DNA of 64,000 nt from Sporopachydermia quercuum (Eukaryota). Positions 2,561 through 30,929 of the stretch are shown in pieces (positions within the stretch are counted from its first letter, which is position 1; each line of letters begins with the position of its first letter). The stretch spans positions 1,240,001-1,304,000 of the forward strand of contig BCGN01000001.1 of NCBI GenBank assembly GCA_001599295.1, given 5' to 3'. A program made the translations under genes and the position numbers. The notes under the pieces were generated by a model that was given only the letters and a program-made list of their open reading frames with translations, searched no databases and was not told the DNA's origin.

Positions 2561-4273
2561 TTAGGCTTTTGATTCATCAATTGAAGTGCTTGATGACTTT
2601 TCAATGAATTCATCCTTAACTTCGCCCTTAGGATTTGAAAAATCAATTTCTGGCACAGTGTTCTCGGTAAGACCTAGCTCCTCGTAGATTCTGGCCATTC
2701 TAGCATTATCAGCGGCACCAGTGCCGGAATCATCATGGAATAATTCATCAATTTCTTCTAAGGTTCTTCCCTTGGTTTCAGGAAGGAAGAACCATACGTA
2801 GAAAGCACTCAAGAACGAAATGATACCGAAGAAAATGTAAGCACCATAATGCATAGTCTTGAACATATCAGATGTAGCCATTGCAACAGCAAAGTTATTC
2901 AACCAATTTGAAGAGGCACCAATTGAAACACCCTTAGCACGAACACCAAGTGGGAAAACCTCAGAGACGACAATCCAAGCGCAAGGACCCCATGAGTAAC
3001 CGAAATTACAGACGAAAATCCAACAGAAGACGACAGCTACCCAACCGGCACCAGAATGATTATCAAAATCACCCCAGAAAGAACCAGCAATACCAGCATC
3101 AACGAATAAACAAACAGCCATACCCAGTGAACCAGCAATCAATGTCGGTTTTCTTCCCCAGCTGTCAACATACATAACAGTAGGAATAGTGAAGACAAAC
3201 ATACAAATACCGACGACACCAGAGGCTAACAGAGAGATAGAGCTTCCAGTCAATCCTAAATCCTGAAAAATAAATGCTGCATAATAAACGATACCATTGA
3301 CGCCAGACCATTGTTGGAACATCATAGTAAGAACGGCAACTAAGGTTCTCTTTCTTAAGCCTGGATGAACAAAAAGTCTCTTGTATGAGTTGTAACCTAA
3401 TAGGAAGTTTGATTTTCTTGAACCATCTTGATAATCGGGGAATAACTCTCTTGATGTTTCAAGATCGAAGATACGTTGCGCCTTAATTTCTAAAAATTCA
3501 ATTCTAATAGATTCATCGCTGATTGGGAGATTTCGAAGTCTAGCGATGGTCTCCAGGGCTTCTTCTTCAAGTCCTCTATTAACTAACCATCTTGGAGACT
3601 GGGGCATGAACATGATACCAACACCGAGGACGAATGCTGGAGCAATTTGAATACAAATAGGAATCAGCCAAGCAGCATTACTTTGTCCTTCTCCTGTTCC
3701 TCCAATGTAGTTAGTTCCGTAACCAATCCAGTACGAAACCATAATACCAAAAGTAATAGAAAGTTGTTGTAAAGCAACTAGAGCACCTCGAATTTCTGGG
3801 GGTGATAACTCAGCATTGTATAAAGGTACGATCATTGACAAGGAACCTACACCCAGACCAGTGACGAATCTACCTCCATAGATATAGTCAGCGTTTTGAG
3901 CACAGGCTTGTACAATTACACCCACAATGAAGACAACCACACCAACCACGGTACATAGTTTTCTACCAAGAGCATCTGCAAGATAACCATTTGCTAATAC
4001 ACCAACCCAGGCTCCCAGTTCCAAAATTGAAGTCAATAGACCTCTTGTGGTTGGATTGCTGATGTTTTCGACATGAATCCTTTGCTGGAAAGAATGCATA
4101 TTCATGATTTGACCAAACATACCTTGGTTATAACCATAAACAAAACCACCAAGGGATGCAAAAATTGCGATAGCGAAAACCTTAGCATTATTGAATAGAC
4201 CTTTGACACCTACTGGCTTGTCTCCCCTTTTACTAGCTAAGGCAGAGATTGGTTGTGAACTAACAGCAACCAT
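2561..4273 (-). CDS. MFS sugar porter, XUT1/XUT3-like putative pentose (xylose) transporter, copy A
   Basis: 570-aa multi-TM ORF with sugar-porter motifs (ADALGRK, PQSPRWL, QQWSGVN, VDSWGRK, PETKG). FASLGGFVYGYNQGMFGQI, GLLTSILELGAWVG and YGTNYIGGTG resemble Scheffersomyces stipitis Xut1 as I recall it. Substrate is inferred from family and neighbours. Confidence 0.9.
   Translation of the reverse strand: MVAVSSQPISALASKRGDKPVGVKGLFNNAKVFAIAIFASLGGFVYGYNQGMFGQIMNMHSFQQRIHVENISNPTTRGLLTSILELGAWVGVLANGYLADALGRKLCTVVGVVVFIVGVIVQACAQNADYIYGGRFVTGLGVGSLSMIVPLYNAELSPPEIRGALVALQQLSITFGIMVSYWIGYGTNYIGGTGEGQSNAAWLIPICIQIAPAFVLGVGIMFMPQSPRWLVNRGLEEEALETIARLRNLPISDESIRIEFLEIKAQRIFDLETSRELFPDYQDGSRKSNFLLGYNSYKRLFVHPGLRKRTLVAVLTMMFQQWSGVNGIVYYAAFIFQDLGLTGSSISLLASGVVGICMFVFTIPTVMYVDSWGRKPTLIAGSLGMAVCLFVDAGIAGSFWGDFDNHSGAGWVAVVFCWIFVCNFGYSWGPCAWIVVSEVFPLGVRAKGVSIGASSNWLNNFAVAMATSDMFKTMHYGAYIFFGIISFLSAFYVWFFLPETKGRTLEEIDELFHDDSGTGAADNARMARIYEELGLTENTVPEIDFSNPKGEVKDEFIEKSSSTSIDESKA
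3761..4048. repeat. 288-bp block identical to 8787-9074 (transporter paralogues)
   Basis: By-eye comparison shows a constant offset of 5026 and no mismatch. Further identical blocks are 3680-3741 = 8706-8767 and 4092-4165 = 9118-9191. Confidence 0.9.
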
Positions 4274-4589
4274 TATTAATTAGATAGTATGTGAATGAGT
4301 TTGAATAGATTAAAAAAAAATCCGCGAGTTATAGTTCACTAAGGATAATGGGTGATGAGTAGTTCAATTCAAGTAAATGAATCGAAATTTGTATGAAATT
4401 TAAAATGTATTATCAAAATTTTGACTTGAGTCGATTTGAATTTTTAAAGTAAGAAAGAAAAACCTTTTATTTTTTAAGGATTCTGAATTGATTTGATGAA
4501 ACTAGGGAGGGATTATGGCGTATTTATAACCAGAAGGCTATTAAATCTTTTTGTTATCAATCAAGGGGGAAATAACTGACCATTTACCT

Positions 4590-4614
4590 TTATTCTGGGG
4601 AAATCTGGGGAAAT
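4590..4614 (+). promoter_or_regulatory. Tandem Mig1/CreA-type sites upstream of transporter A
   Basis: TTATTCTGGGG AAATCTGGGG AAAT: two SYGGRG cores with AT-rich 5' flanks, about 320 bp upstream of the ATG and just distal to a TATAAATA (minus strand, 4521-4528). Confidence 0.6.
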
Positions 4615-7589: not shown

Positions 7590-9305
7590 TTATGCTTTTT
7601 CATTAGCTTCGCTAGAATTGATACTGCCATTATCATGAGAAGTACTTGGCTTGACGCTGACGTTATAATATGAATCTGGTAAGGTATTTCCAACAAATCC
7701 CATTTCTTCCCAAATTCTAACCATTCTCGCAGCATCAGCAGCACCAATACCGGAATCATCTCTGAATAACATATCCATTTCTTCAAGAGTCTTATTCTTA
7801 GTTTCAGGAACAAAGAAAAAAATGTAGGCACCGCCTAATAGACAGAAGCAACCGAACCAAATGTAAGCACCATATCTCCATGAGGCAATCATATCAGAAG
7901 TTGACATTGCAACAACAAAGTTGTTCAACCAATTTGAAGAGGCACCAATTGAAACACCCTTTGCTCTGTAGGCCAATGGGAAAACTTCGGAAACGACAAC
8001 CCAAGCACAAGGACCCCATGAGTAACCGAAATTAACAACATAAATCCAAATGAATACAACAGCTACCCAACCGGCACCGGAATGATCGTCGAAAGAGTAC
8101 CAAAATGAACCAGAGATACCAGCAACAATAAAATGACAAATGGCCATACCAATAGAACCAGTGATCAGAGTCTTCTTCCTACCAAAATTATCAACAAACA
8201 GAACAGTTGGAATAGTAGCAAGGAAGTTAACAATACCGACAACACCAGAAGCTAACAAAGAAATGGTATTACCAGTTAATCCTAAATCTTGGAAAATAAA
8301 TGGTGCATAGTATAAAATAGCATTAATACCAGACCATTGTTGGAACAACATAGTAAGCACTGCAACTAAGGTTCTCTTTCTCAAACCAGGATGAACAAAC
8401 AATGCCTTGTAGTCGTTGTAACCAATCAAAAAGTTAGATCTTCTTGAACCATCTTGATAATCTGGATACTTTTCTCTTGCTGATTCAACGTCAAAAACAT
8501 GTTGAGCCTTCATTTCTAAAAATTCAATTTTAATTAATTCATCATCAGCCGACCTGTCTCTAAGGTAACAAATAGTGTCTAAAGCTTCTTGTTCACGGTT
8601 TTGGTCCATGAGCCATCTTGGAGATTGGGGCATAAACATAATACCAAAACCAAGGATCAATGCAGGAGCAATTTGAATACAAATAGGAATCAACCAAGCA
8701 GCATCACTTTGTCCTTCTCCTGTTCCTCCAATGTAGTTAGTTCCGTAACCAATCCAGTACGAAACCAGAATACCAAAAGTAATGGCAAGTTGTTGTAAAG
8801 CAACTAGAGCACCTCGAATTTCTGGGGGTGATAACTCAGCATTGTATAAAGGTACGATCATTGACAAGGAACCTACACCCAGACCAGTGACGAATCTACC
8901 TCCATAGATATAGTCAGCGTTTTGAGCACAGGCTTGTACAATTACACCCACAATGAAGACAACCACACCAACCACGGTACATAGTTTTCTACCAAGAGCA
9001 TCTGCAAGATAACCATTTGCTAATACACCAACCCAGGCTCCCAGTTCCAAAATTGAAGTCAATAGACCTCTTGTAGTGGGATCTCGGATCGTTTCAACGT
9101 CAATCTGNTGTTGAAAGGAATGCATATTCATGATTTGACCAAACATACCTTGGTTATAACCATAAACAAAACCACCAAGGGATGCAAAAATGGCAATAAG
9201 AGAAACTTTTTTGTTTGAAGCAAAAGCATGGAAGCCAACTTTTCCAGCAATAGCAGCCCGCTTGTCAGCAAGACCTTTCGGTAATGTGCCCTCTAATTCA
9301 GTCAT
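7590..9305 (-). CDS. MFS sugar porter, XUT1/XUT3-like putative pentose (xylose) transporter, copy B
   Basis: 571-aa tandem paralogue of 2561-4273 with the same motifs. The N-terminus KRAAIAGKVG resembles Xut1. It contains one ambiguous base (n). TATATAAA lies on the minus strand at 9543-9550. Confidence 0.9.
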   Translation of the reverse strand: MTELEGTLPKGLADKRAAIAGKVGFHAFASNKKVSLIAIFASLGGFVYGYNQGMFGQIMNMHSFQXQIDVETIRDPTTRGLLTSILELGAWVGVLANGYLADALGRKLCTVVGVVVFIVGVIVQACAQNADYIYGGRFVTGLGVGSLSMIVPLYNAELSPPEIRGALVALQQLAITFGILVSYWIGYGTNYIGGTGEGQSDAAWLIPICIQIAPALILGFGIMFMPQSPRWLMDQNREQEALDTICYLRDRSADDELIKIEFLEMKAQHVFDVESAREKYPDYQDGSRRSNFLIGYNDYKALFVHPGLRKRTLVAVLTMLFQQWSGINAILYYAPFIFQDLGLTGNTISLLASGVVGIVNFLATIPTVLFVDNFGRKKTLITGSIGMAICHFIVAGISGSFWYSFDDHSGAGWVAVVFIWIYVVNFGYSWGPCAWVVVSEVFPLAYRAKGVSIGASSNWLNNFVVAMSTSDMIASWRYGAYIWFGCFCLLGGAYIFFFVPETKNKTLEEMDMLFRDDSGIGAADAARMVRIWEEMGFVGNTLPDSYYNVSVKPSTSHDNGSINSSEANEKA

Positions 9306-12300
9306 TATGAGGATATAGGGCTATATGTGTTATTTGTAATATTTTTTCTTCCAGTAGAATATGGAATATTTATAGTAAATGTGAATAGTAGTTTTTGATT
9401 TATCCTTTAAGGGGATTTAGTCTCTAGAAGTGTTTGTTTATAAGTCGTAGTCAATCAAATATTGATTTAATAGTATATGAATGAAAATAAGTAAGAATAG
9501 GAATATAAGTAAAACTGGTGTGAACATAGAGAAGAAAACCTCTTTATATACTTTTTAAATATGACCATTCTTTTAGACGTAGATATTATAATAAACTGTA
9601 AATTGAAGGAGCGGAAGAACAAGCACTTCGACTCGAAAGTTCAATGAATACTAATTGTAGTGATTAAGTGAGCCAAACGAAGTAAGGTTTAGACACTGGA
9701 AAAACTATTGAATCTTATTTTTATTTCAGTAGTTATCTTGGTAATAAAGTTTTCTACTATTACCATTTTCATGTCTATCCCTGACTCACTAGTCCAGGTC
9801 ACACCAATGACGAAGGCTAAAGGGTCTGTGTTTACCTCGTTCGCTCGGAGCTCTATTAATAGGAAAGTGTCTGTTCCATTCTCCCCACCTTTACCAGATA
9901 TTTAAGATTATACTTGGTTTTTCAGTTCGTGCCCCATGTATTTTACATGGTTGTTAACTATGAAAGGGGGTAGAGTGAGTTTTAGGAGTTGGAGTGTCTC
10001 GTTTATTGGCTTAACCATCCTTTTCACTAATGTTTTCTAAAATTTCTATTTCGGAAGAATTACTTGGTTTCTCAACAGTATTATTCTAGTTAAAGTTTAT
10101 CATTGAATCAAGCTACATAGCAACCACCATTAAATCTTGTATTTAGATTATTCTTAACTGGCTTAACGGGAATTCTAGTACATCCTAACTCTTTGTAGTT
10201 TCTTCCTTCCCCATTTACTTACTCTCAACCCCATAAAACTTAACAGGGTCTGCGTCGTTCTTTATTACCCCAGATTAATAATTCGGAGCTTTAAGGTTAG
10301 CATGAAACCCTATTAAGGTTTGATTCTTCATTCATCATATGCTTGTTGTTGCACCTCTAACCAACTCAATGCATCACCGAATGATGTCGAAAAGAAAGAA
10401 AAAGAAAGAAATGCATAAAGGAACTTTAATAACAAGGATATCAACGGAAAAAATCGTTCTGGTTAGCTGATATTGAATAAAATGTAGTAGGTGTTGCTAT
10501 ATAGTCGCTTCAGATTGGGAAGTCAATGAAGATTTTTGAACTGTGTATCTGAGGGGGAAATATAAGAGTAGTAAGTCTTGTAATGCCAAATGAAATCTTT
10601 CGTTGCATATGTATAAAACTGAAATCTGCTTATTTTATCCTTTGATAGAGAGTCCGTTAATAGATTTGAATGTTACTTATTGCTATCATTCTTAGCTACC
10701 ATCACGCCTGTCCAATACCATGTCTACCATATCTTGCTTCGAAAATATGAAGTTAGGACTTGATATGTTTTCTTTCAAAACCTTCCCATAAATGTCTGAA
10801 ACGGTAACTACTCACCCACGAATGAGTATAGCTTTCCTCTGGCTTTTTTTATACCCCTACATAATTGTGCTGAATATCGATTAAATGCTCAGTTATTGGA
10901 TTATACGAGAATATTACTCTTGGACGTTAGTTAGAAGATAGGAACCGTTTCCCAGTTTTTTCATAGCTTAATAATAAAGTGGAGTAATTCAACTACGTCC
11001 TAAATATATCAACATCTTCTGATACTTAGATGTCACACATCAAATCGCAACGATACAAATTAAATATACAGATATATTTGGTAACATAGGAAAAATACCT
11101 TTCATAGAAAATGTTCCATAGATGATTAATTCTTAAACAAATAAATGTTATCATTAGTTTTGAGGGGAACTTTGCTGCTACGTTATAGTACCAGGTTATA
11201 CACTGAACTAATGAATCTGATTTCCAGTCACCAATTGACCCTTGTAGCCATTGTCTGAGTTCCCTAATTGACGATAGGACTTCAAAGAGCATGGTACCAT
11301 GGATGTGAATTGTATGTACATCGAATCAGTAATCTTCATATAGCCACTCAATTCAATTCCGTAGAATTTTAGAAATTAAGATACATCTTACAATTAGCAT
11401 TTAATAATAGACATATCGAATCATTTTTGGTGACAACAGTAATGCTATAATCAAATTGTAAAACGGACAAACCATCACTCTTCTATGGATTTCCTATCAC
11501 CAAATTACTGTCCAACATAAGGAAGCGATCATACCGGAGTAAAGCTTCATTTGATAATATGAACCTAAATAATACTCTCTTGAAAATGGATGCTAGCCAA
11601 GATATGATGTCATGAAATCATTCCTGTTCTACATGGAAGTTCTTAGATTCAAAGCTTCATATTGATGTTCCGATGGCCCAAACTAAGCCTTGTCAAACTC
11701 GAAAAAATTAGGGTGATGCTGAAAATTTTGAGAAAGGGTCTGAGGAGATGAGGTTTTGCTGCAATGGTCCTCGTTTTGAATAATAACACCTGAACGTTAA
11801 CAAGATGTGCTTGTATCAAAAAAAGGAAGAAACAGTTGAACAAAGTACTGTTAGCTTAACTCAAACTTGAAAACAAGCAATCATTATTTTTGGTAATCGA
11901 AGTATTATATTATGAACTTTTGATTTTGATGAAGGTATTCAAGAATTCTCTCAGGTGATTCATAGAGTTTTAGCGTGGAGTCAGGAAATAAAACATTTCC
12001 ATCATTTAAACTTAATCTTGTAAGGCTAAGGCAACATAAAGTTTGAACTTTAAAAATAGTTTTTCCGGTTTTCATAATATGAGGGGTCTGGCATTCGAAG
12101 CTGAAATAGTGAATCGAAACAATAATTTTTTGGGGTCAAATCATCAGAAAGTCGTGAGATTATAAAACCTTCAAATGACTGAAATTAGCTAATAAGTATT
12201 TCTTGACATTAAAGTTGCTGCTTTTGACATTTTAGTAAGCTTTCAACTGAAACCACTGCGGAACAACCGTTTCGTTCTTAATTTCGTAACTTTTCATGTC

Positions 12301-14240
12301 TGGCGAAAATGTAATTCCCATTTGTAACGAATAGATCAAGTATAGAAGATATCTGAAGCCAAGAGTACCAAGGTATATTTAGTGTTCTGGACATCGAGTA
12401 ACCAATATTGGGCTGAAACTTGTTCAACATGCAACTCTCCACTTGAAATTAACGCGAACCTTAACGCTAACGTTCAAGATACTCCGGATTAAATCTGTAG
12501 AATTTTTCCGAAATGGTTTCACTTCTATAATCATCAAATCAAATCCTAGATCTGAAGTAGCCTAGCTGAAATTCTCTTTTCTTAAAGTATGTTATCAATC
12601 AAATTGAAGCGGGGATTTGAAAATTTAAATTGTCCACAACTACTTGCCGAGTTCGGGCAGCTTTTCATTTATATCAAAATACAGAAGTATTATTTAAGGG
12701 AACTAGAATAATTACGGAAGCTCAACCTGTTGCCGTACACTGATTTGATTGAACTTATTCATCAATATGGGATTTTCGACATTATCAGCCAGTATTCAAA
12801 TCGAACTGCTGTTTTTACTTCTTAGTCAAAGATTGTATCTTCTCTGGTTCAGAAAGCTTAATTTAGCAAGAATCACAGGACTAACTCAAATAGTTAAACC
12901 CCTTGAATTTTCATTGGGTAGAGGATGTCAGACTACTTTTACTTTTCTTTCCGGCAAACAGTAACCAGTCTCGGAAAAATATTATTTCTAATAAAAGTCA
13001 TCCTTTTGATGGTAAGTTCTTAGACCCTTCAATACGACCACGCATTCGATTGGATTATCTATCAGTTTAATTCTAATCATCAATAAAACCAATTTTCCCT
13101 TGTGCCATTGTTAGTTAGACTCGATAATGTTCAATAAGAACTTTATCAATGTGTTGCAAGCTTCTATGTTGCCACATTGATTTCTGCAAAACAATTCGAT
13201 TCCACCCTCATTTACCCACTTCAGCATTTTATGACAATTAGTTAAAACATAGTTGGTTATAAGTGAAATTACTGGCAAGCTCTGAATTGATAACCCAATC
13301 AACTAACCCAATAAACTAACCCAAAAATACCAAACTAATTTCCAAAGTAAATAAAATACTTTAATAGAGTCTAATTAAAAGTGTTGTCGAATTTGAGCTT
13401 ATGAGCTTAATCAATCAAATAATTTATATAAGGCTAAGCAAACTGTTCCCCCGGATTAACTCATGTAAAGTTTGATTGAATTATTCCGCTAGTCTCACTA
13501 TCATTGAATTAGTAAGAAAGAGCTAAATATCATCGATAAATGATAATCCATGAATCAATTAGTTAATATAAGTACATGTCATTCAAAGCATCTAAACAAA
13601 TTGCTTAGTGATAAATAGTACAATCAATTAATTGTACATTATAATCCAAATGGCCTCTTCCTGAATTTATATGAGAACTACTTTCAACTCAAAAAAGACA
13701 ACAGAAAATGGCTACACTGAGCTGTGGACTATCACTGAAGGGATTTTGTTATTTGGTTAGCTTTGTTTTAATTACCGACTGAATTGCTATCGCTGATAAT
13801 AAATTCATCTATCTTTACATATGGAGTTAAATTGAACCTACAGGAGCACCCCAAGTGTTCCATCATCAATCCAAAAATGCGATGTTCATTGAACAAATAA
13901 TACTTCAAAGTAACAGAAAAGTACAATCGAATCATCGTAGAATCGTCATAGAACCACTTGATCTAGAGTAGTGTTCTTATATTAATAAACTCTTTTCAAA
14001 GAATAGTTCAGTTTATTTTTCCCGCTTAATGAAAAGAAGAAACTACCCACATTATTGTACACCCCAGTTGTTTACTTCTTTTTGTGCAAGAGTTCTGAAC
14101 TTCCTTGGAATAAATGCATTTGTAGCACCATCTCCTTAGGCATATCAACTAGAAAGCTCTCATACTTTGTGAGAAATCACATTACTATATTATTCTACTA
14201 TCTCTTTCAACGCAACCATCGTATTCAACGTACGAACCTT

Positions 14241-14306
14241 CCCCAGAAATTATCGCGAGATAACCCCAGAGAACCCCAGAGAACCCCAGAAACGCTTTAG
14301 TCTAAA
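14241..14306 (-). promoter_or_regulatory. Array of four CCCCAGA (CTGGGG, Mig1/CreA-type) motifs plus TTTAGTCTAAA palindrome
   Basis: CCCCAG occurs at 14241, 14264, 14274 and 14284, the last three with a 10-bp period. An interrupted palindrome follows at 14296-14306. The array sits in the transporter B / XYL1 divergent intergenic region. Confidence 0.6.
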
Positions 14307-15348: not shown

Positions 15349-15458
15349 CGGAGTAATTAGGTATTTTTTATACCTTATCCCCAAATCTAACCTTACCGGA
15401 ATAATACTCTTACTTGTGATGCTCAAGTGCCCTAACAATAAAATCAGTCCGGGGTAAA
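15349..15458 (+). promoter_or_regulatory. Three CGG-N2-TAAW motifs about 50 bp apart, candidate UAS of XYL1
   Basis: CGGAGTAAT (15349), CGGAATAAT (15397) and CGGGGTAAA (15450) lie on the same strand, 400-510 bp upstream of the ATG. CGG triplets are typical Zn2Cys6 half-sites. Confidence 0.45.
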
Positions 15459-15689
15459 ATATCCAAAACTTTTTCCGAACTAAGCACCAAACAGCCAACA
15501 TTTTGATGCCTTTAAAGCCTGTATCCCTAAGAAGTGACATACAAATCTAGCACCCCGTCTATAGTACTCGAATAATCTTTCAACTCATAATAGAGCCTAA
15601 AGTTCAAATCTCGCTAACGTCTCCGTACTAATCCACCCATTGTCACTCACTCATTCAAAAAGGAGGACTACATAGAGAATTTATTATTA

Positions 15690-15697
15690 TATATAAA
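15690..15697 (+). promoter_or_regulatory. TATA box of XYL1
   Basis: TATATAAA about 160 bp upstream of the ATG, followed by a pyrimidine-rich leader and an AAAAATG start context. Confidence 0.6.
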
Positions 15698-15855
15698 GGC
15701 ATAGAGTTCCAAAAAATAGACCTATATACCCTTGAAAGATTCCTTGTTTGCTACTAATAGTTTTCTGGTTCTTCCCATTTTTACCTTGCCTACTAATAGA
15801 TCACTGTTGATTAATATCTATAGACTGTAATACTACTAAATTATACACTTTAAAA

Positions 15856-16827
15856 ATGACTGCTGCTGAATCATACACAGTTCTTCCATCAGGATCTAAA
15901 ATGCCATTGATTGGCTTGGGTACTTGGAAGATCCCCACCGAAAAGGTCGCCGATACTGTCTACAACGCTATCAAAATTGGTTACCGTCTTTTTGATGGTG
16001 CTGAAGATTACGGCAACGAGAACTTATGCGGTGAAGGTGTCAAGAGAGCAATTGACGAAGGTATCGTTAAAAGAGAAGATCTGTTCATCACTTCCAAGTT
16101 ATGGAATACTTTTCACCATCCTGATCACGTCATTGATGCTTGTAAGAGATCTTTGGAAGATTGGGGCTTAGAATACTTTGATTTATTCTTGATTCATTTC
16201 CCCATTTCTTTGAAGTATGTTGATCCTGCAGTTAGATACCCTCCTGGCTGGAACTACGACGTTGAAAAAGGCACCATTGAATTCGAAGACGTTCCAATCA
16301 TTGATACCTGGAGAGCTATGGAGAAATTAGTTGAATTGGGGCTCGTCAAGAACATTGGTGTTTCTAACTTTTCTGGTGGTCTTCTTTATGACCTTATGAG
16401 ATCAGCTACTATCAAACCTGCTTCTTTACAAATTGAACACCATCCTTATTTAGTTCAAAAGCCTTTAGTTGATTACGCTTTAAAGAGTGGAATTGCTGTC
16501 ACTGGTTACTCCACTTTTGGACCTGCTTCTTACATTCAATTAGATCACGGTCAAGGTGTCGCCAGAGTTACTGAGTTGGAACCAATTAAGAAGATTGCTG
16601 AGAAATACAACAAGAGTCCTGCTCAAGTCGTCTTAAGATGGGCTACTCAAAGAGGTATTCATGTTAACCCCATGTCGACAACTGAGAAGTACTTAAAGGA
16701 GAATCTCAATACATTAGATTTCAACCTCACTGAAGAAGAATTATCAACAATCAGTGGTTATGATAGGAACTTCAGATTCAACGATCCTTATGACTGGCCA
16801 CCAACTGGTTTACCTATTTTTGTTTAA
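15856..16827 (+). CDS. XYL1: D-xylose reductase (aldo-keto reductase family 2B)
   Basis: 323 aa with AKR tetrad D47, Y52, K81 and H114. Xylose-reductase signatures are GYRLFDGAEDYGNE, LIHFPISLKYVDPAVRYPPGW, LQIEHHPYL, RFNDP and the C-terminal LPIFV. Confidence 0.93.
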   Translation: MTAAESYTVLPSGSKMPLIGLGTWKIPTEKVADTVYNAIKIGYRLFDGAEDYGNENLCGEGVKRAIDEGIVKREDLFITSKLWNTFHHPDHVIDACKRSLEDWGLEYFDLFLIHFPISLKYVDPAVRYPPGWNYDVEKGTIEFEDVPIIDTWRAMEKLVELGLVKNIGVSNFSGGLLYDLMRSATIKPASLQIEHHPYLVQKPLVDYALKSGIAVTGYSTFGPASYIQLDHGQGVARVTELEPIKKIAEKYNKSPAQVVLRWATQRGIHVNPMSTTEKYLKENLNTLDFNLTEEELSTISGYDRNFRFNDPYDWPPTGLPIFV

Positions 16828-17620
16828 AAAGGTAAATGAATTTTGGTGAGATTAATGAGTTTAGATAATACATACTTATAATACATACTTATAAATTAAA
16901 TGACATTTTATGATTATTTGATTAATTGAATGTAGAAAAATAGAGCAGTAGTCGATTAAACTGGGATCACCACAGGCAAGACAAGGAGGGAAACTTAGTT
17001 TTTCATTGTATTTGTGTTCAGGTGAAATTCTAAGAAACATATCATTAAGATGTGATTACGCTATGTTTATAATATGTTTACATGAATGATCATTCAACCA
17101 ATTTATATTTTCTGTATCCTATTTTCATCCCTTTTGCAATTTCAGAAATTCAAACGGATTATAAGTTCTGATAGCGAGTGCTAAAAACAGTAGGAGATGA
17201 ATGCATGACTTAAATTCTTGAATCCTTAGAGAGCTTGAATGTGATCTGACGTCTTAGAATGAAAAATCATACTACAGAATTTTTGTGTTCTACTTAAGTG
17301 CTATTAAAGATCTCATTATAGAATCATTTTACACGTTTGATGAACTTGTATTTGTTCTTAATCATTACGAAAGAAAGGAAGGAATGCCATCATATCATAA
17401 ACTCATNTCATCTCATCTCATCTCATCTGACCGTTGATCTAACAGACTCCAACAGATCACATACTTTTATAGTACTGACAGAAACTACGAATACGATCCT
17501 ACATCATACTCCATATTTTCATTCATTTATTCATATAAACAACTTATCTCATAAATACAAATAAATATATACGTACACATTACATACACATATCTCATCA
17601 TCTAATTCTATGCAACAAAT

Positions 17621-18688
17621 TTACTCAGGTCCATCAATGATAAGCTTAATAGCCTTTCCTTGTAGAACGGTCTTGAAGCCTTCTTCACATTCATCAAACT
17701 TGATTCTATGAGTGACAAGCTTTTTAACATCAATCTTACCAGAAGCAATTAATTCGACAGCACGTGGATAATCACCATCATAGTATCTGAATGAGCCCTT
17801 GAGAGTCAATTCCTTAGCAGCAACTTGAGCAATTGGGAAATTGACTTCATCTTTACCCATACCAGCTTGAACCATGACACCACCAGCTTTCAAAACATGG
17901 ACTGCAGCAGCAATTGAAGATTCAGCACCAGAACATTCCAAAGCAACGGTTGGCTTGAATCCGAGTTGAGCTTCAATCTTCTTAGCAGTTTCAACAGCGC
18001 TGTCATTCTTATCAACAACGTAACCATCAGTGGCGCCGAAATCTAAAGCAAACTTGACTCTGCTCTCAACGATATCAACAATTGCAACTCTGGTAGCACC
18101 ATAAGCCTTAGCTGTCGCAGCACATAATAAACCAATGGGACCAGCCCCGAATACAACGACTTTTGACCCAAAAGTGACGCCCGCAAGTCTATTAACGTGA
18201 ATACCAACTGATAGAGGTTCAACTAATGCACCCTCTTCTAATGAAACATTTTCTGGTAATTTAACACAGAAATCTTCCGGTAATAAATAAAATCTGGCTA
18301 ATGTTCCGTCATAAGGAGGAGTAGCAGCAAATGCCATATGAGGGCATAAGTTATATTTACCGGCTTTATATTCTTCAGAGTACCTTGATGGAATACCTGG
18401 TTCCATGGCGACTCTATCGCCAACTTTCAATGATGTAACTGCTGATCCAACTTCTGTGATAATACCTGCTGATTCATGACCAAGAACCATTGGTGCTTTA
18501 ACAATAAAATCACCAATTGATCCATGGGTATAGTAATGAACATCTGAACCGCAGATACCAGTCTTCTTCACTTCTACTTTAACATAGTGAGGATCCTTAA
18601 TTTCAGGAATTGGTCTATCTTCATAAGTTACATCATGAACCTTTTTAAGGACAAATGATGGATTTTTCATTGATTTGATATCGGTCAT
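17621..18688 (-). CDS. XYL2: NAD+-dependent xylitol dehydrogenase (MDR family)
   Basis: 355 aa. Catalytic Zn ligands are in CGSDVH and GHE, the Rossmann motif is GAGPIG, and VDIV carries the NAD-type Asp. EPGIPSRYSEEYKAGKYNLCPHMAFAATP lacks three structural-Zn cysteines, as in yeast Xyl2. Confidence 0.93.
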   Translation of the reverse strand: MTDIKSMKNPSFVLKKVHDVTYEDRPIPEIKDPHYVKVEVKKTGICGSDVHYYTHGSIGDFIVKAPMVLGHESAGIITEVGSAVTSLKVGDRVAMEPGIPSRYSEEYKAGKYNLCPHMAFAATPPYDGTLARFYLLPEDFCVKLPENVSLEEGALVEPLSVGIHVNRLAGVTFGSKVVVFGAGPIGLLCAATAKAYGATRVAIVDIVESRVKFALDFGATDGYVVDKNDSAVETAKKIEAQLGFKPTVALECSGAESSIAAAVHVLKAGGVMVQAGMGKDEVNFPIAQVAAKELTLKGSFRYYDGDYPRAVELIASGKIDVKKLVTHRIKFDECEEGFKTVLQGKAIKLIIDGPE

Positions 18689-20863
18689 TTTTAATAAGGA
18701 CTTTTAGTGATAATTATTCAGTTAGTAGGTTATTATTAGCAACTAAGCATTCGAACTACTAAGCAACAAACAATCGAATGAAGAGAACAATCAATTGACA
18801 ACCTAAGCGTAAAAATGTGGGAGAGACAGGTTTTTATGTTATTGAAATTGAAAATCTATCTCATACGAATAAGAGTTGAAAAAATTAATAAGGGAATTTC
18901 TTTCAATTGATGATGTGGTTCCAACTTGAGCTGTGAATGATAGATGATGTTATAGCTATCAGGCAGCATTCCTTTGTTCAGTATACTTTGATGTACGTAT
19001 GGGATAATAGGGAGAAATAGCAGGTTAAAATGTTTAATTTGTAGGTAGAGCTAATAAGATTCGGCATAGAGTGACTAAAACAAGTGAAGTTCAGAGTATA
19101 ATTGCCATTTTAATGTACTGATCGACTGTATAGAACAAGAGAAGTGGGTAAAATAAGGATGAGTTACTAGAAATGAATATGTTGGCTGGGTTAATTGATG
19201 TAATAGAAGGGAATAGATGGGGATGAGGATGTTATACTACACGGAACAATTGTTAGAACTGTAAATAGGAAATGATTACTTTGCTTCAGGTAGTTCCTTC
19301 CATTTTTTTCATTTCGAAGCAAAGTGCTACCGAATACTGTTTGAATAGTTTATGATGACGAAGAAGATAGGATGCACTTATTCTCATGTGGTTATACTGT
19401 AACCAACTAAACAAAGAAGTATCTTGTCTTCGTCATGAAATAAAACACGCCTGTTCTATTTTATTACTAACGAATTATCAGATGTTAATTCACTCTGTAT
19501 GAGAGATTTGGTTTTCTTCTTTTAGCTTCAACTTGTTACCTACGATCTCCTTCCCCGTTGCCAAATATCTTCTTGCCACACAATCAAACCAATATTCATC
19601 ATAAAACCAAGAAAATCAACGATGAATCCATTTTATCGATACATTTTCGATCATTTTGCTACCTCTTGAATGTATATTTTCTTCACAAATATCTCTTGTA
19701 TAAGTTGTTTTCCCACGCCTTGTTAGCAAACTTTAATAAGATAAGCCAAACCTTAATACCGGAGACAATGAGCTTTAGATATCGCTACAGTTTCTAGTTT
19801 GTGGAATGAGACGTGAAACTGTAATTACTTATTTTAGGCATACATCCGGATTATCTTTGTATAAACCCGACCCGAGAAACTTAGCTATATGTATATTTTT
19901 CATCCCTTCAAGCATGATTCTTTCTTTGCTCATTGATTCTTATCCTACGCGTTCTATAGAAACAAAAGCAAACACAAGTGATTCTATGAAAAACGAGAAT
20001 TCCGGGATAAATAACGGAGAAATTAAGCAAACATCATTCTTTATTTTTTTTCCTTATGTCAATATTATCCTACTTAAGTTGGACTGTAATACTCTATCCA
20101 CATCAACAATCATGTCATGTGTTCTATTCATCACCCACCCTCTAGAACCAACTGTAATCTCAACCCCAGAATTGAACCCCCTAGTCACTGAGCTACCCAA
20201 AAATTCGGGTGTTTCCAGGAAATAAAGCCTGGATTTTAAATTCAAATATCCACTCTTTTGATTCTCTGCTCACTTCCCTTCCTATGTTTCTTACCGTTAG
20301 TCATTTTCATTGACTTCGGAATATTTTATAAAGTTAAAGTTCAAGCTTGCCCGACAATCAATTTAATCAGGTTAAGACTTTTAGCCTGGTTGCTATTAAG
20401 GGTATAACTGTATATGGTTCGTTCTACGAGTAGCTATGAATATGTATTATCGGTACAACTAATTCCTANTGTTCTTTATATTTCGACTGGGAAAAGGATA
20501 ACTACCAATTTAAATGCTGGTTAATCCTTTCAATAGCTGCAGTTTCGAATCAGTCACGGAAAGATAGGAATAGCAAGCCAATTGAATATATACTTGGTTC
20601 GCTGAATAGTAACCTAATATGAAAACCAAAGCGATTGAAACTACAACAAGTACGAATGTATGAAGAATCAGTTTATTGGACTACATTCAATCAAAGAAAC
20701 TAGAAGGAAATTGATTGATATTGTTAATTCTTTCCAATTGAATTATCAACAACTTACCAATAATCTGCAAAAACCCTGCAATATTCTACAAAACTCTGCA
20801 CAACTTTCATACAAAATCTGCACATATCCGCACATATCCTGCATCAGAAATCCGTGACTCACG

Positions 20864-22609
20864 ATGACTGACCTCTTCCTTGGATTCGACTTATCAACGC
20901 AACAAATAAAAGCAGTTGTTGTTGATGAAAATCTAAAGCAATTCTATCAGAACTTTGTGGAATTTGATTCCGACACCCCAAGCTATAATGTGTCAAAAGG
21001 AGTCTATAAAAACTCAGCCGACAATTCAGTTTATGCTCCAGTTGCAATGTGGATAGATGCTTTAGAGATCCTATTAACCAAAATGAAAAATGATTCGTTC
21101 CCTTTCAATCGAGTGAAAGCTATCTCTGGAGCTTGTCAGCAACATGGATCTGTTTTCTGGTCAAAAGGNGCTGAAGAAATCCTCCATGATCTTAACCCAA
21201 ATGTGCCTTTGACTCCACAACTTTCTCCAAACGCTTTGGCTCATAAATATAGTCCTAATTGGCAAGATCATAGTACTCCTACTGAATGCGCTGAATTTGA
21301 AGCAGCCGTTGGTGGAGCCGAGGAATTATGCAAAATAACAGGCTCTAAAGCTCACCATAGATTCACTGGTCCTCAAATCCTCAAATTCAAAACTCAACAT
21401 CCTGATAGGTACGCTTCAACTTCTCGTATCGCTTTAGTATCATCATTCCTTACATCAATATTTCTAGGCAAACTTGCACCATTGGATATTTCCGATGTGT
21501 GCGGGATGAATCTATGGGATATTAAGAAATCTGAATGGTTGGATCCTATTATCACATTGACTGCTGGCTCTTCCGATGCGAGTATCAAGCAAGAATTGCT
21601 TGATAAATTAGGNCCAGTTGATAAATCACCAGAAAAATCATTAGGAACCATTTCCAAGTACTTTATCGAAAGATACGGATTCCCGGAAGACTGTGCTATA
21701 TCTAGTTTCACTGGTGACAATCCAGGAACTATTCTAGCTTTGCCTTTACAATCATCAGATCTGATGATATCTTTAGGTACATCAACAACTGTTCTATTAA
21801 CAACCGATCAATATGTTCCTAATGCATCATATCATGTATTTGGGCACCCTACAACTAAGGGTCTGTATATGGGTATGGTTTGCTACTGCAATGGTTCACT
21901 TGCAAGGGAGGAAGTTCGCAATGATATTAACAGTAAGTACAACATTAATGCTCCTCATCATTCGCCTATTAAATGGGAGAAGTTCAATCAGTTGGCTCTA
22001 TCAACACCAGCTTTTGGCAAAAAAAGTGGAGATTCACTTGCAAAGCTCGGAATTTATTTTCCATTAGCAGAAATAGTTCCAGATGCTGCTGCTGGTATTC
22101 ATCGTTATGAGTTTGACGACCAATCAAAGGATAAAGAATTCACTCTGGAAACAGATAATACATTGTGGAGTTTGCCTGATGATGATGCAAGAGCTATTAT
22201 TGAATCCCAAGCATTAAGCATGAGACTCCGAGCCGGCTCAATGCTTTCAGGAGAATCTGGCGATGCAAGACCCGGAAGATTGTTTTTCGTTGGAGGAGCA
22301 AGTAAGAATGAAGCTTTATGTAAAGTCATGTCTGAAGTTCTAGCCCCAAAACACGGTAGTTGGAGAGTTGAATTAGCAAATGCTTGTGCAACTGGTGCTG
22401 CCTATAAAGCAGCCTGGGTCGGATTATATAAACCTGGTTGGAGTTTTCAAGATATGATGAATGAGAAGTTTGATATGAATGAAGAAGGTCTCATTGCTAG
22501 AATTGACGGTGATGTTACCGATGAGCAAAGGCAGAATAATTGGAATACTTATGCTATTGGGGTTGAAGCTTTGGAGAAAGCTGAAGAATTATTACCGCAG
22601 AGTGTTTGA
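20864..22609 (+). CDS. XKS1: D-xylulokinase (FGGY family, eukaryotic type)
   Basis: 581 aa with LGFDLSTQQIK, ISGACQQHGSVFW, SPNWQDHST, GSKAHHRFTGPQI, FTGDNP, SLGTSTT, CYCNGSLARE and FVGGASKN. Also known as XYL3. Confidence 0.95.
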   Translation: MTDLFLGFDLSTQQIKAVVVDENLKQFYQNFVEFDSDTPSYNVSKGVYKNSADNSVYAPVAMWIDALEILLTKMKNDSFPFNRVKAISGACQQHGSVFWSKXAEEILHDLNPNVPLTPQLSPNALAHKYSPNWQDHSTPTECAEFEAAVGGAEELCKITGSKAHHRFTGPQILKFKTQHPDRYASTSRIALVSSFLTSIFLGKLAPLDISDVCGMNLWDIKKSEWLDPIITLTAGSSDASIKQELLDKLXPVDKSPEKSLGTISKYFIERYGFPEDCAISSFTGDNPGTILALPLQSSDLMISLGTSTTVLLTTDQYVPNASYHVFGHPTTKGLYMGMVCYCNGSLAREEVRNDINSKYNINAPHHSPIKWEKFNQLALSTPAFGKKSGDSLAKLGIYFPLAEIVPDAAAGIHRYEFDDQSKDKEFTLETDNTLWSLPDDDARAIIESQALSMRLRAGSMLSGESGDARPGRLFFVGGASKNEALCKVMSEVLAPKHGSWRVELANACATGAAYKAAWVGLYKPGWSFQDMMNEKFDMNEEGLIARIDGDVTDEQRQNNWNTYAIGVEALEKAEELLPQSV

Positions 22610-23959
22610 TTTATGAATTTAACAGCTTTACTTTGTTTTGGTTTCAAAGCATTATATTGAAAATGTATATAAGTATAAATATGAATATGAATATGAATAA
22701 GTAAAGTTATAAGTATAATAGATAATGAACTANTAGATAATGAACTGAATTATGATATAGGATATTACAGAGAAGAAAGTGCATGAGAAAAGTAGATAAC
22801 AGGGAGGGTTAGTTCTGTCCTTTTAATGTTCTTTTATTTTATGTTATCTCATTGTTTCTTACAACGTAGCACAATAGTACATATGTATGCTACATTCAGC
22901 ACCTTTAACGAGTAAATATCTGACTCTTTTACCTAAAAATTTCTAANCTATCTTATCAATAAATACATTAATACAAGAAATGAGTATTTGACTACTGATA
23001 CTTAAATGCTTTACATCGTTTCTGTGGTAGGCCCTCTGCGAGACAAAGTGCATCATGTAACTTGTTATTATGAAACAAAGGTAAAGCAGTAAGTGCAAAC
23101 ATAAGAAAAGGAATAAACAAACTCAAGAGAAAAGTAGATGATATAGAGCCTGATATTGTTTAAGGAGATGTAGTGAATCAAAACCATAGCTTGTTTCTCG
23201 AAAGAACAAAAATGTACTTCCCAGGCATTTAATCTCAGAAAAGGAGCATCCAACATCACCAACAAGCGCAGATATGCGGACATCTTGATGCATTAAAGGA
23301 TATGGATGGCTTTTGAATTAGTCAGTCTAGATGTTTTTATATCATTTAGTGGACAGTTTCAATAATAAGTGGCAAGTGCAGGGTGCAAAATCATAGAAAT
23401 GAATATGTCACAGGACCTTGGAAAATCACCATATAGAATTGTAAGGAAGTATGAAGATAAGGTATGTTGTTGAAAAGGAAAGAGCCAATAAAGGAATTGT
23501 CTGGGTCGGATTGGAATGGTTTAATGAATTGGCGATTGAAACGGTATTGATGAAATGATTCTGTTGAAATCAACCTGGAAATGAATTATCTTTGAAGTGT
23601 TTATGTTTCTCCTTACTTTATACATTTAAAACATGGTAACATAATCTAACCAAAACTTGAATAGAATCCTTCAAGCTCTGCTGAGGTAAATAGAGCCCGT
23701 CTCTCGTTTTCAAAATAGCATTTTTCCCATAGGGATTTCATAGATCTCATTATTCTCTTAATCTGGGTCAACTGATAGAACTTTTCACTGCATTGTTGTT
23801 ACATACTTTACTTTCATCTCCACAGTTCATCATTATTATATATTAGTTCTTATCTATATTACATTACACTCAACACCTTATGCCTATTAATTTTAAATAC
23901 TATCTACAAATACCCTCGCCAGTTTGGTCATCATATACCAAATATACCCTAGGCAGAAT

Positions 23960-26021
23960 CTAAGGCGCTATACCATATCCTCCACCAGTCCATCTATAAA
24001 CAGCCAAAGCTTCTTTCCGTTTTCTACTCAATTCTTCCTGTGATTCAGGGTCATTTGCATTTCCCACCGCAGCATTTGCATGCCTCAATGCTGCCCGCAT
24101 TATATTCCGTGATGTTCTCATATATTCTGCAGTCAAAGTTACAATACACACTTCATGAGCTCTTACTACAATTTCACATGCTCTCCTCATTTCATTCCCG
24201 AGTCCACTTCCGAGCCGATCGACCATATATAGTAGAATGGTACTTGCAGGAGAGAACAAATAAATTCCAGTGAAGAACGGCATAAGCCGAAGGTCGGAAT
24301 CAGTCGCCAGCACGGAATCCAAACATTCCGAAGCTTGAATTGCATGTGAAGACGCGATCCGAACTTCGGGCGAGTTCACCCATTCAGGCGGAGCATTCAA
24401 TAATTCTATCGGATCCCACGGAATGTTTAGTAGTATATGGAACACATGTACTAAATACATAGCATAGTCCTTCCAAGCTTCGGAATACTCCGAGAACACC
24501 ATTTCGCCGTTAATTGAACTCCGCGAATGCTCCTGCAAACGATTTGTTCTAGAAAAGCCTTTTAAAGATCTTGTATAGACTGCTAATTGGGTCTCTACCT
24601 GTGCTTTCACGTAATCACGATAATTCCTAGGTAACAATTGTACTGGCTGTTCACATAGTAAATGGGTAGTCACCATTCCCCCGAGAATCATCATTAAAGG
24701 TAAAAAAAATCCGAAAATGCCCTGGGATGATATACTAAACGAGATTCCGCAAGCTCGGGCCGAATCTTCTTCTGCCGGTTGTAAAGGGAACCGCGTTGAA
24801 TGATTCCATAAGGCATCGTCCTGAGGATGATAGAGATCTTTGCATTCAGCATCTAGTAGAGCTAAAGGCTGGTCGAAACAGAATCCTAAATGTCTGTCAA
24901 TCATATAAATGATCCACCAAGCTCTTCTTCTTTCTTCCCGAACTTCTTCGGGTAAAGTTGCAACTTCCATGTTAAGCTTGCTCTCACGTGCCAATCCTTG
25001 GGCTGTTTTCCACCATTTCATAGAAGCTCCTTTGAATTCTGAAGCCGANGCAACCGTCCCGAGCTGGATACACGTGATCACATCATCTAGTCCCGGTTCC
25101 ACTTCTGAGTTAGGCTGGTCTCTGTCCCGGCCAGGCTTGAACTTTTGGCCGAGCGATGAGTTTCTAGGATATCCTGCTTGTTGTAACGGAAGAGATAACT
25201 CTACCGCTAACTCAAACAGTTTAGTGGTGATAGCGTAATGATTAGACGGTACACATGTCAAATAGGGATGATGCGATCCGTGTACTGCTACCAACAATAA
25301 AGCACATAGTAGGGAAGCCGAAGTTGGTCTCGGATTCTCTTTGGACAGGATAGACGACTTACGTACAATGTATGCTAGTACATAAGGAGAATGGTCAAAA
25401 TATGACTCTAGAAGATCACACGCCACGTCCATCGGTAGAGAAATTTGGTCCAAATAAGGCAGCAGCGGCTCAAAAACCGGGTATCGCATATCTTGGCCAG
25501 CGTTCCGTGTACCGGGAGACGAAGAAGTAACCGACCCGTTAGTATCTGGAGGGTTATTTGCCGACATAATTGAATTCGAGCTATTAGGTTGAGGAATATT
25601 AGTGGATGATTGTGGGCCGTTTGGGGTTCCCGAGTTTAATGATGCCGTTGGTTGTTTTGTATTTATTGCAAATGACGACTTATGCCGAGATCCATACCGA
25701 ATAGAGTTTGCTTGAGCAGCTGAGCCGGAAATTGATCCGTATTGATCTACTGGGGGTGCGTACCGTAGACCAGGGTCATTTACTAAATCCATCATTGAGG
25801 ACCCGAAAGCTTCCGAGTTCTGTAAGTCCGTTGCATTTGGAGTTCNGCCGGATATAGCATAGAACGGAGATGGTAGATTCGGGTCGGTTAACATGTCGGT
25901 TGAATCACGCGGCGTTCGGCCTGTTCGATCCACATTGAATAGAAAAGAATCCATCTCATCTGGACCATTCGAAATCGAAACTTGCGATTGCTGTGCTTGT
26001 TGTGCTTGTTGGTGCTGATGG

Positions 26022-26052
<31 letters not shown>

Positions 26053-26788
26053 GATTGGTGAGTTGGCCGGAAGTCATTCGAGAAGAAGCGGAGGATCCCG
26101 GAGATAGAAAGCTTGATTGTGATTCTGGAGAGCCTTTCGGGTCGGAGATCAATTCCATTAAAAGATTATTTGGCATTTGCTGATTTGACTCTATTGGTAA
26201 CCCTGGGTTATCTGGACCTTGAGCCGAACCCATTGACTGACCGGTACCAGTTTGAAGTTTATGAACTCCGTTCAATCCAACACGATCCGCAGGTGGTAGG
26301 CCCATATCGGCAGCAACTGGAACGCTTCCCGAGGTATTTCCAGCAAGCAAACCTTGAGGTATTGAGGCAACACCAGTCATTGGAGCTACAGCTCCTCTAT
26401 CCGATTTCTCTTTCATTTCTTTTTCCTTTTGCTGTTGCAACAACATTGCTTGACGTTTACTAGTGTAAGATTCCGAAGCTCTGCCCCTCTTCCGAGGTTC
26501 TCGTGAATATTCGCATTTGATTTTAACTCTTACACAGTGATGACAAGGAAATGCACCATCACATTTCGTTCTCCGTTGGTTACATTGATCACATGCTCTA
26601 GCCACGCGCTTTGACTTTTTTGGTTTCGGCACATCCGAAGAAAACAAATCCATAGGTTCATCTGATCTCTCCGGAGACCTCGGCTTATTTTCATTCCCCA
26701 TCGAGTTCTCTCCACCTTGGCTTTCGATTTGACCTGATCCTGTCCCAGAAGACATGCCAGGAACTGATGCGCTCATATCGAAGGACAT
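23960..26788 (-). CDS. xlnR: XlnR/Xyr1-like Zn2Cys6 xylanolytic / pentose-catabolism transcriptional activator
   Basis: 942 aa, no intron needed. The zinc cluster [22 protein letters not shown]...[81 protein letters not shown] and C-terminal [11 protein letters not shown] are all XlnR/AraR-family signatures. Confidence 0.88.
26024..26053 (-). repeat. (CAA)10 microsatellite encoding poly-Gln in XlnR
   Basis: Ten uninterrupted TTG triplets on the + strand, within a Q/H-rich segment. Confidence 0.95.
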
Positions 26789-30482: not shown

Positions 30483-30929
30483 ACAATGTAGAAAAAATTG
30501 AAATGGATAAAGTATAGTGAGTAACTATTTTAATAGATTAGAAGTCTTGGTTATTAATTAGATTGTTCGTACTTTACTGGTAGATATAAACTTTCACCAC
30601 TTGATGAAATTGAGCTAAATAAATGTACTCAGCACTAAATCTAACTAAACTTAACTAAATTAATGAACTTACCATGCGTTATTGCATTATTAGATGCAAT
30701 AATAAGATGTCAATGAATTGATAATATTGGTATGAACTACTAGCATTATGATATGCCATCATTTATGTTTTATCTACAATAAAGCCAATAGCCATTAGAG
30801 ATCTTCTAAAGTGAACCTGCACAGGAATGATTATAAAAATTAACACATCTATATATAAAACAATAAAAATAATATAAAATCTATACACCTCAAAATCAAT
30901 TCAGTTATTCAATGATACTACATCAGCCG

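Follow-up and report, generated by a model that had tools for sequence, protein, structure and literature searches.

The genome of Sporopachydermia quercuum carries, on contig BCGN01000001.1, six consecutive genes that encode two tandem sugar porters (A and B), a xylose reductase (XYL1), a xylitol dehydrogenase (XYL2), a D-xylulokinase (XKS1/XYL3) and a Zn2Cys6 transcription factor of the XlnR/Xyr1/XLR-1 type. They were analyzed in a window of 64,000 nucleotides (nt), which comprises positions 1,240,001–1,304,000 of the contig and to which all coordinates below refer; the six genes occupy about 24 kb of it (2561–26788). The locus is probably a catabolic D-xylose gene cluster of a standard-code budding yeast outside the Lipomyces family, with an XlnR-type activator included. 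Loci of this kind are known, namely yeast catabolic gene clusters that include a Zn2Cys6 regulator, but no earlier description of this one was found.

According to this reading, the two XltA-type porters would bring in xylose, the aldo-keto reductase (AKR) would reduce it to xylitol, the zinc polyol dehydrogenase would oxidize xylitol to D-xylulose, and the FGGY kinase would convert D-xylulose to xylulose-5-phosphate, feeding the pentose phosphate pathway. The XlnR orthologue would turn on the five structural genes with xylose present, while a CreA/Mig1-type repressor would silence the locus on glucose, the regulator gene included. An old XlnR-pentose regulon would thus have become, or stayed, physically linked in this lineage by vertical descent.

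Gene order and gene identities

Seven open reading frames (ORFs) of at least 150 amino acids (aa) are present in the first 30 kb of the window, and six of them are the cluster genes, all uninterrupted frames with no introns. The minus strand carries both porter genes as a tandem; the divergent pairs are porter B/XYL1 and XYL2/XKS1, the convergent ones XYL1/XYL2 and XKS1/regulator, and the spacers measure 3.3, 6.5, 0.8, 2.2, and 1.35 kb in cluster order. The Pfam cut-off was reached by none of 63 stop-to-stop frames of at least 55 aa from the spacers and the two flanks, a search beyond whose reach intron-bearing or domain-less genes lie; two sub-threshold matches were obtained, both past the regulator. 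The spacers were also searched for tRNA genes, Rfam families, and relics of cluster genes, and none was found. The original prediction, made from the DNA letters, had described six genes of these identities, two divergent pairs and no unrelated coding sequence between the genes. Its coordinates agree exactly with the ORF listing, the orientations match, the spacer searches bear out the third point, and the identities are supported by Pfam, solved-structure relatives, the identity to XltA, and the XlnR clade.

All six of the consecutive ORFs belong to the pathway or are its regulator, which gives the locus at least three immediate neighbors of the same pathway, as in yeast catabolic clusters, and the XlnR-clade Zn2Cys6 gene is a pathway-type transcription factor encoded inside it. 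That five gene families with linked functions came to be neighbors by chance in ~17 Mb of genome is judged, rather than calculated, to be of negligible likelihood. The left end of the window lies only 2.5 kb before porter A, and the left edge of the cluster was judged within that view.

XYL1 (15856–16827, plus strand; 323 aa; Aldo_ket_red E 2.4e-49) has the yeast xylose reductases 5z6t (E 5e-113) and 1jez (7e-109) as best solved relatives, with the next enzyme class at 9.7e-74. For comparison of its active site and cofactor pocket, 81 AKR representatives of 295–345 aa, taken from the best 150, were used. The catalytic residues D47, Y52, K81, and H114 are kept in XYL1, as they are in 78, 77, 79, and 81 of the 81 representatives, respectively. 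The cofactor motif of yeast xylose reductases, IPKS with an Arg downstream, is absent: residues 271–280 (window positions 16666–16695) read NPMSTTEKYL, and NPMS replaces IPKS. M273 and Y279 stand where the Lys and, six residues past it, the Arg contacting the 2′-phosphate of NADPH normally sit. Among the representatives, the Lys position holds Lys in 75, Arg in 3, and Met in none, and the Arg position Arg in 68 and His in 7. The combination of NPMS and Tyr is unique to XYL1 in this set; because representatives were searched at 50% identity, which leaves the true xylose reductases in only a few rows, this speaks for rarity among AKRs and gives no measure of the frequency among yeast xylose reductases. 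By overall similarity, the assignment of XYL1 to the xylose reductase group stands, with an atypical cofactor pocket.

In the reductase of Scheffersomyces stipitis, Lys270, Ser271, Asn272, and Arg276 contact the 2′-phosphate of NADPH, and the exchanges K270M and R276H as well as the engineered loop IPSGPTVPFL shift its preference in the direction of NADH, as described in the available part of PMC2213684. The natural XYL1 analyzed here thus resembles engineered NADH-preferring variants of an enzyme that itself retains IPKS, and the NPMS motif suggests a preference of XYL1 for NADH.

XYL2 (17621–18688, minus strand; 355 aa) is a zinc MDR of the polyol dehydrogenase type with ADH_N (1e-25) and ADH_zinc_N (2.4e-25) domains. 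Its best solved relative is the xylitol dehydrogenase 7y9p (E 1.5e-107), followed by sorbitol dehydrogenase (2.5e-100) and L-arabinitol 4-dehydrogenase (1.2e-74). In the alignment, the zinc-site stretches, the ‘VDI’ stretch of the Rossmann fold and both the GroES-like and the Rossmann domain are retained, as is typical of a zinc MDR. An acidic Asp in the Rossmann stretch is a marker of NAD-dependent dehydrogenases, and XYL2 has it. Together with the altered cofactor motif of XYL1, this residue makes a redox-balanced reductase/dehydrogenase pair on NAD(H) plausible.

XKS1 (20864–22609, plus strand; 581 aa) contains the two FGGY domains (FGGY_N 1.3e-15, FGGY_C 3.9e-21) and is closest to eukaryotic D-xylulokinases, the best solved relative being human xylulokinase 4bc2 (E 2.8e-95), whereas bacterial XylB proteins score 1.4e-07 or weaker. 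Among the 120 fungal matches listed, identity is 46–57%, mostly across 98–99% of the length, and many are named xylulose kinase.

Porter A (2561–4273, minus strand; 570 aa; Sugar_tr E 2.4e-115) and its tandem paralogue porter B (7590–9305, minus strand; 571 aa; Sugar_tr E 4.3e-117) are 82.6% identical at the DNA level over 1493 nt and 77% at the protein level. They are sisters in the porter tree, with a support of 100 in the Shimodaira-Hasegawa-like approximate likelihood ratio test (SH-aLRT), and therefore arose by duplication in this lineage. In a tract of porter B (8659–9083, minus strand) with its partner in porter A (3633–4057), 416 of 425 aligned bases are identical, with a longest identical run of 288 nt, compared with 906 of 1238 (73%) in the remaining gene sequence, which points to recent gene conversion between the porters. 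The tract covers the N-terminal third of the proteins and shows doubled contig depth. The best relatives of the porters, from Lipomycetaceae and Geotrichum, are 66–69% identical. Aspergillus niger An06g00560 shares 62% identity with them over 92% of the length. This protein is XltA, a characterized D-xylose transporter with xylose as its inducer and XlnR as its controlling factor, according to the accessible text of PMC5968117. The similarity to a proven xylose transporter leads us to infer that porters A and B import xylose.

The regulator gene (23960–26788, minus strand) encodes 942 aa with the domains expected of an XlnR protein, Zn_clus at residues 64–100 (3.4e-08) and Fungal_trans at residues 596–706 (5.7e-08). 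Long Ser/Gln/Pro/Asn-rich stretches are present, among them poly-Gln encoded by a CAG/CAA repeat (25988–26053, minus strand), and the gene is the most GC-rich of the window (0.452). A search among 8,000 scored candidates yielded 33 matches, the best with 38% identity over 54% of the query, so the collection searched holds no close relative. An atlas search with the C-terminal 362 residues returned only generic fungal transcription-factor clusters. In an alignment of nine proteins including the query, in which two of the eight relatives are named XlnR by their source, collinearity of the regulator extends all the way from the zinc cluster to the C-terminal end. There are 77 invariant columns over the nine proteins, which run from the DNA-binding domain to a block ~55 residues before the C-terminus, and the tail is conserved in the eight proteins that reach it.

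In a quick maximum-likelihood tree, built without a characterized AraR or GalR and labeled with automatic database names, the regulator sits inside a clade of 22 XlnR-type proteins (SH-aLRT 100). Outside of this clade are four Aspergillus proteins, shorter and with no zinc-cluster domain, which were taken as paralogues. Within it, the regulator groups with a protein of Lipomyces tetrasporus and one unnamed protein (SH-aLRT 99), and the sister group is a Pezizomycotina clade arranged largely by class. Based on the full-length collinearity and the position inside the XlnR clade, the regulator was filed in the XlnR/Xyr1/XLR-1 family; it would be the orthologue of the pentose/xylan activator XlnR of filamentous fungi, with a pathway specificity that homology predicts. 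The two proteins it groups with, P0011 (L. tetrasporus) and P0007 (Logan), are full-length XlnR-type proteins from yeast-like sources. According to a 2026 paper, Saccharomycotina lack XlnR homologues (available text of PMC12969433); as classified here, the regulator and the Lipomyces protein argue otherwise.

Promoter motifs and substrate range

Consensus motifs for the XlnR site and for CreA (SYGGRG) were taken from the available part of PMC12969433. Within 1 kb upstream, each structural gene has 2–7 GGNTAA sites, with four at XYL2 and seven at XKS1. SYGGRG has 29 occurrences in the cluster spacers (16.5 kb in total) compared with 14.4 ± 3.6 in shuffled sequences, none of 300 shuffles reaching 29, and 12 in the other 22.5 kb of spacers, where 16.0 are expected (binomial p 2e-4). 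Its variant CTGGGG is found 22 times in the window versus 9.6 ± 3.4 expected (reached in 0 of 100 shuffles), and 17 of the 22 fall into the first 27.7 kb. Upstream sites are located at 4595 and 4605 for porter A, at 10268 for porter B, at 20164 for XKS1/XYL2, and at 27324 and 27670 for the regulator.

Further sites lie in the divergent porter B/XYL1 spacer (9306–15855, 6.5 kb), which has no recognizable gene and 17 SYGGRG boxes. Four CTGGGG boxes of CreA/Mig1 type (14241–14289, minus strand; sites 14241, 14264, 14274, and 14284) are located ~1.6 kb upstream of XYL1, three of them inside a tandem repeat of period 10 at 14258–14290 (AGAGAACCCC), and a fifth box is found at 14062, resulting in five boxes in 230 nt (14062–14289) about 1.6–1.8 kb upstream of the gene. 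The enrichment of CreA-type boxes in the cluster spacers fits glucose repression of the whole locus by a CreA/Mig1-type repressor, as a motif count, not a demonstration.

The divergent XYL2/XKS1 promoter region (18689–20863, 2.2 kb) contains GGNTAA sites, one CTGGGG and an unsupported ORF. This ORF of 139 aa, starting with ATG in an open frame of 148 codons (19806–20225, plus strand), has no Pfam family. Its translation is hydrophobic, of low complexity and like that of non-coding DNA, though the frame is long for DNA of 35% GC; it is probably not a gene. As a further candidate motif, TAGCTAA was found seven times in the cluster spacers and not at all in the others, and was rejected after its window-wide count of 13 versus 10.1 expected proved not to be above chance. 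GGCTAG and pairs of CGG/CCG triplets were not enriched either.

Several observations weigh against the reading as a D-xylose cluster under an XlnR-type activator. The scores of XYL2 against xylitol and sorbitol dehydrogenases are close. The porter tree puts XltA in a neighboring Pezizomycotina subclade that does not include the porters, which makes porters and XltA members of the same family, not strict orthologues. The regulator stands on a long branch (1.58), and it joins Lipomyces as one long branch to another. For a yeast cluster under joint regulation, spacers of 3–6 kb are exceptional in size, though comparable gaps of 3–5 kb are also present elsewhere in the window. No GGNTAA is found within 1 kb upstream of the regulator, GGCTAA is not enriched in the window (17 versus 22.1 expected), and in the cluster spacers GGNTAA (28/33.4), GGCTRA (7/8.3), and GGCWWW (44/41.4) all lack enrichment over expectation. 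A de novo search revealed no informative k-mer common to all six promoters, and CTGGGG, the best discriminating 6-mer, reached a p of 5.7e-4 that is uncorrected over ~1,900 words. Finally, the view is that of the window, and further copies of the cluster genes may exist elsewhere in the genome. The original prediction had spoken of a self-regulated XYL cluster; the cluster holds, and self-regulation, for which XlnR-type motifs are present but not enriched, is still to be read as an inference.

One alternative is that the cluster serves a wider range of pentoses and polyols (L-arabinose, xylitol, sorbitol, or arabinitol), or that its main substrate is not D-xylose, xylose being just one input. 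The near-equal scores of XYL2 would agree with this, and the porter specificity is a prediction. Xylose reductases commonly reduce L-arabinose, too. XlnR-type factors also affect L-arabinose genes according to the accessible text of PMC12969433. Against this, a xylulokinase belongs specifically to the D-xylulose end of the pathway, neither an L-arabinitol dehydrogenase nor an L-xylulose reductase gene is part of the cluster, yeast xylose reductases are ahead of other AKR classes by 40 orders of magnitude for XYL1, and the closest characterized relative of the porters carries xylose, as far as PMC5968117 is available. On this balance we regard a wider or different substrate as unlikely.

To a similar degree improbable is that the genes are adjacent but form no regulatory unit, the factor acting on other targets, e.g. 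secreted xylanases, or on nothing nearby, and each structural gene being under separate control. The lacking enrichment of XlnR-type sites, the lack of a shared promoter word and the very long spacers would be expected then, and XlnR of filamentous fungi does work on dispersed genes. On the other hand, six of six consecutive genes make up one pathway and its known regulator family, every structural gene has GGNTAA sites close upstream, and elsewhere XlnR controls these very enzyme classes and this transporter type, as the available parts of PMC5968117 and PMC12969433 describe; in Aureobasidium, its targets include the XYR, XDH, and XKI genes (available text of PMC12969433). A D-xylose cluster with its activator remains our preferred reading.

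Descent, occurrence and contiguity

Gene trees, which the original prediction had proposed for each member, were built for the kinase, the porters and the regulator, and each joins the query to budding-yeast lineages. In the kinase tree, Pezizomycotina (SH-aLRT 100) and Lipomycetaceae (98) form clades of their own and the query falls with Tortispora, Sugiyamaella, and Trichomonascus (97). The porters group with Lipomycetaceae and Geotrichum (93). At 18 of 19 CTG codons in four genes, relatives carry Leu or another hydrophobic residue, which indicates that CUG is read as Leu as in the standard code. The GC content at third codon positions (GC3) is 0.26–0.37 for cluster genes and 0.25–0.33 for other genes of the window. 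Taken together, the trees, the decoding of CUG, the overlapping GC3 values, and the absence of introns point to a budding yeast outside the Lipomycetales and to vertical descent, and the cluster genes look vertically inherited.

Horizontal acquisition from a filamentous ascomycete or a Lipomyces-like yeast would be suggested by the presence of Pezizomycotina among the best named matches of regulator and kinase, by the GC excess of the regulator gene (GC3 0.371) and by the absence of XlnR from budding yeasts as held in the accessible text of PMC12969433. We consider it very unlikely, since all three trees place the query with budding yeasts and otherwise follow the species tree, no match exceeds 69% identity, GC3 overlaps that of housekeeping neighbors in the window, introns are absent, and the GC excess of the regulator goes with its Gln/Ser/Pro-rich low-complexity stretches.

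For the occurrence of the cluster elsewhere, metagenome contigs were scanned with a 13-protein kinase alignment as anchor; of 329 relatives, the 80 best were analyzed together with flanks of up to 10 kb to the left and right. At least 5 kb was available on one side or more at 40 of these loci and on both sides at 19, the flanks totaling 635 kb. In tblastn searches with the five other cluster proteins (E ≤ 1e-10), the xylose cluster was present at none of the 80 fungal xylulokinase loci, a sample that consists mostly of filamentous fungi and holds no close relative of this yeast, the best kinase relative being 57% identical. Thus, the result bears on the cluster being not widespread in fungi, not on its uniqueness. 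Only one locus (L051) matched any of the five proteins. On this intron-less, yeast-like contig (L051:928–10755), the kinase and a xylitol-dehydrogenase-like gene lie ~7 kb apart with an MFS_1 transporter, an ISU1-type gene and a mitochondrial carrier between them, which amounts to loose linkage only.

An exact look-up of three cluster proteins gave no match. The remark in the original prediction that no such cluster was known to be described agrees with a full-text literature search, which covered main texts and in which no fungal xylose gene cluster was found; matches for phrases of the ‘xylose cluster’ type were bacterial or unrelated. In the main text of a survey of XYL genes in 332 genomes (PMC10263009), the terms cluster, synten, adjacent, and tandem have no occurrence, and the main text of a 2026 review of xylose-fermenting yeasts (PMC13270690) contains no gene cluster, XlnR, or regulon. 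Likewise, no genomic xylose cluster was found in the main texts of PMC11067038, PMC13130702, PMC7068945, PMC8601170, PMC4022394, and PMC7653285.

The window contains 15 single Ns and no runs of N. Five of the 15 lie inside cluster genes and lead to an X in porter B (1), the kinase (2), and the regulator (2). Contigs of three sequencing runs of the same organism from two studies (2016 and 2023), with ~17 Mb of contigs, were compared with the window. In all three, one contig of 11,280 nt spans positions 14771–26004 and so connects XYL1, XYL2, XKS1, and 2,045 nt of the regulator gene. The contigs are interrupted at two features only, the porter paralogue repeat and the CAG repeat of the regulator, the latter being the sole break between XYL1 and the start of the regulator, and the adjoining contigs overlap end to end. 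Since the assembly itself may have been made from these runs, the match is one of consistency, not an independent proof. Even with this reservation and with breaks within the porter paralogues, an adjacency created by misassembly is hardly conceivable given the single contig in all runs, breaks that coincide with the two repeats, overlapping neighbor contigs, and the lack of N runs.

Two irregularities were noted in the contigs. The contigs of all three runs skip 177 nt at 14600–14778 and have raised depth there, suggestive of a small repeat close by. In both 2016 runs, a 486-nt contig with 18 differences from the window over 8768–9117 has ~1.6–2 times the flanking depth; it may involve the overlapping gene-conversion tract.

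Related systems and neighboring genes

In the MAL loci of yeasts, genes for permease, maltase, and a Zn2Cys6 activator stand side by side, partly as divergent pairs. The present locus shares with them, including the MAL cluster of Ogataea polymorpha (PMC6070925), the combination of clustered sugar transporter, catabolic enzyme(s), and Zn2Cys6 activator. It differs in substrate and enzyme families, in its three sequential enzymes, its duplicated porters and its much longer spacers, and its activator is of the XlnR family, in contrast to the Mal63 family of MAL. Like the GAL1-GAL10-GAL7 clusters, it is a case of a primary-metabolism sugar pathway clustered in budding yeasts. The GALLAC cluster of Candida intermedia has an XYL1 paralogue (aldose reductase) and the regulator LAC9_2 (available text of PMC11497787); however, GAL and GALLAC serve galactose and lactose and are not known to include a xylose porter, XlnR, XYL2, or XKS1.

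Bacterial xyl operons (xylAB, xylFGH/xylE, xylR) follow the same logic, with uptake, conversion to xylulose-5-phosphate, and a dedicated regulator at one locus, but they use the isomerase route, polycistronic transcription, and an unrelated regulator and transporters. The XlnR regulon of filamentous ascomycetes comprises xyrA, xdhA, xkiA, xltA, and xylanase genes, and its targets are dispersed, which corresponds to the lack of linkage at the 80 kinase loci. Regulator family and classes of target (reductase, dehydrogenase, kinase, and XltA-type porter) are the same as in the XlnR/Xyr1/XLR-1 regulon, as far as the available texts of PMC5968117 and PMC12969433 go, and CreA boxes are also reported from the promoter of the XlnR regulator in the latter. 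In S. quercuum, by contrast, the presumptive targets are contiguous with the regulator, the organism is a yeast, and no xylanase gene is in view. S. stipitis and other xylose-fermenting yeasts possess the same three-enzyme oxidoreductive pathway, and their solved enzymes are the closest to the reductase and the dehydrogenase described here, but their XYL1, XYL2, and XYL3 genes are dispersed, and no XlnR-type regulator is known from these yeasts. The available part of a review on gene clusters of P. stipitis (PMC2784038) does not mention a XYL cluster.

A further-reaching scenario, which we put forward tentatively and hold to be rather doubtful at present, is that an early-branching yeast kept the ancestral ascomycete XlnR-pentose regulon, packed as one module of uptake, three enzymes, and activator, and that the reductase lost both contacts to the NADPH phosphate, so that reductase and dehydrogenase may both use NAD(H). 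If true, the module would be a redox-balanced, xylose-sensing ‘xylose operon-like’ cassette, the first one native to a eukaryote, and XlnR-based xylose sensing would be older than the split of yeasts and filamentous ascomycetes and would have been lost repeatedly in yeasts. The locus joins a candidate xylose-responsive activator to its presumptive targets in one organism. For metabolic engineering, it offers a compact set of parts for uptake (two porters), conversion (a reductase that may prefer NADH, a dehydrogenase, and a kinase), and control (the regulator), and with regard to genome evolution a central plant-sugar pathway joins the short list of yeast primary-metabolism clusters.

The remaining window contains ordinary genes, among them those for eIF5, TIP41, an Erv1-type oxidase, an alternative oxidase, YME1, a class-III aminotransferase, and a DUR3-like symporter. 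The last two are located directly past the regulator (29064–32978), where a GABA-transaminase-like class-III aminotransferase gene and a DUR3-like sodium:solute symporter gene are arranged tail to tail, possibly as a pair for nitrogen catabolism that has no relation to the cluster.

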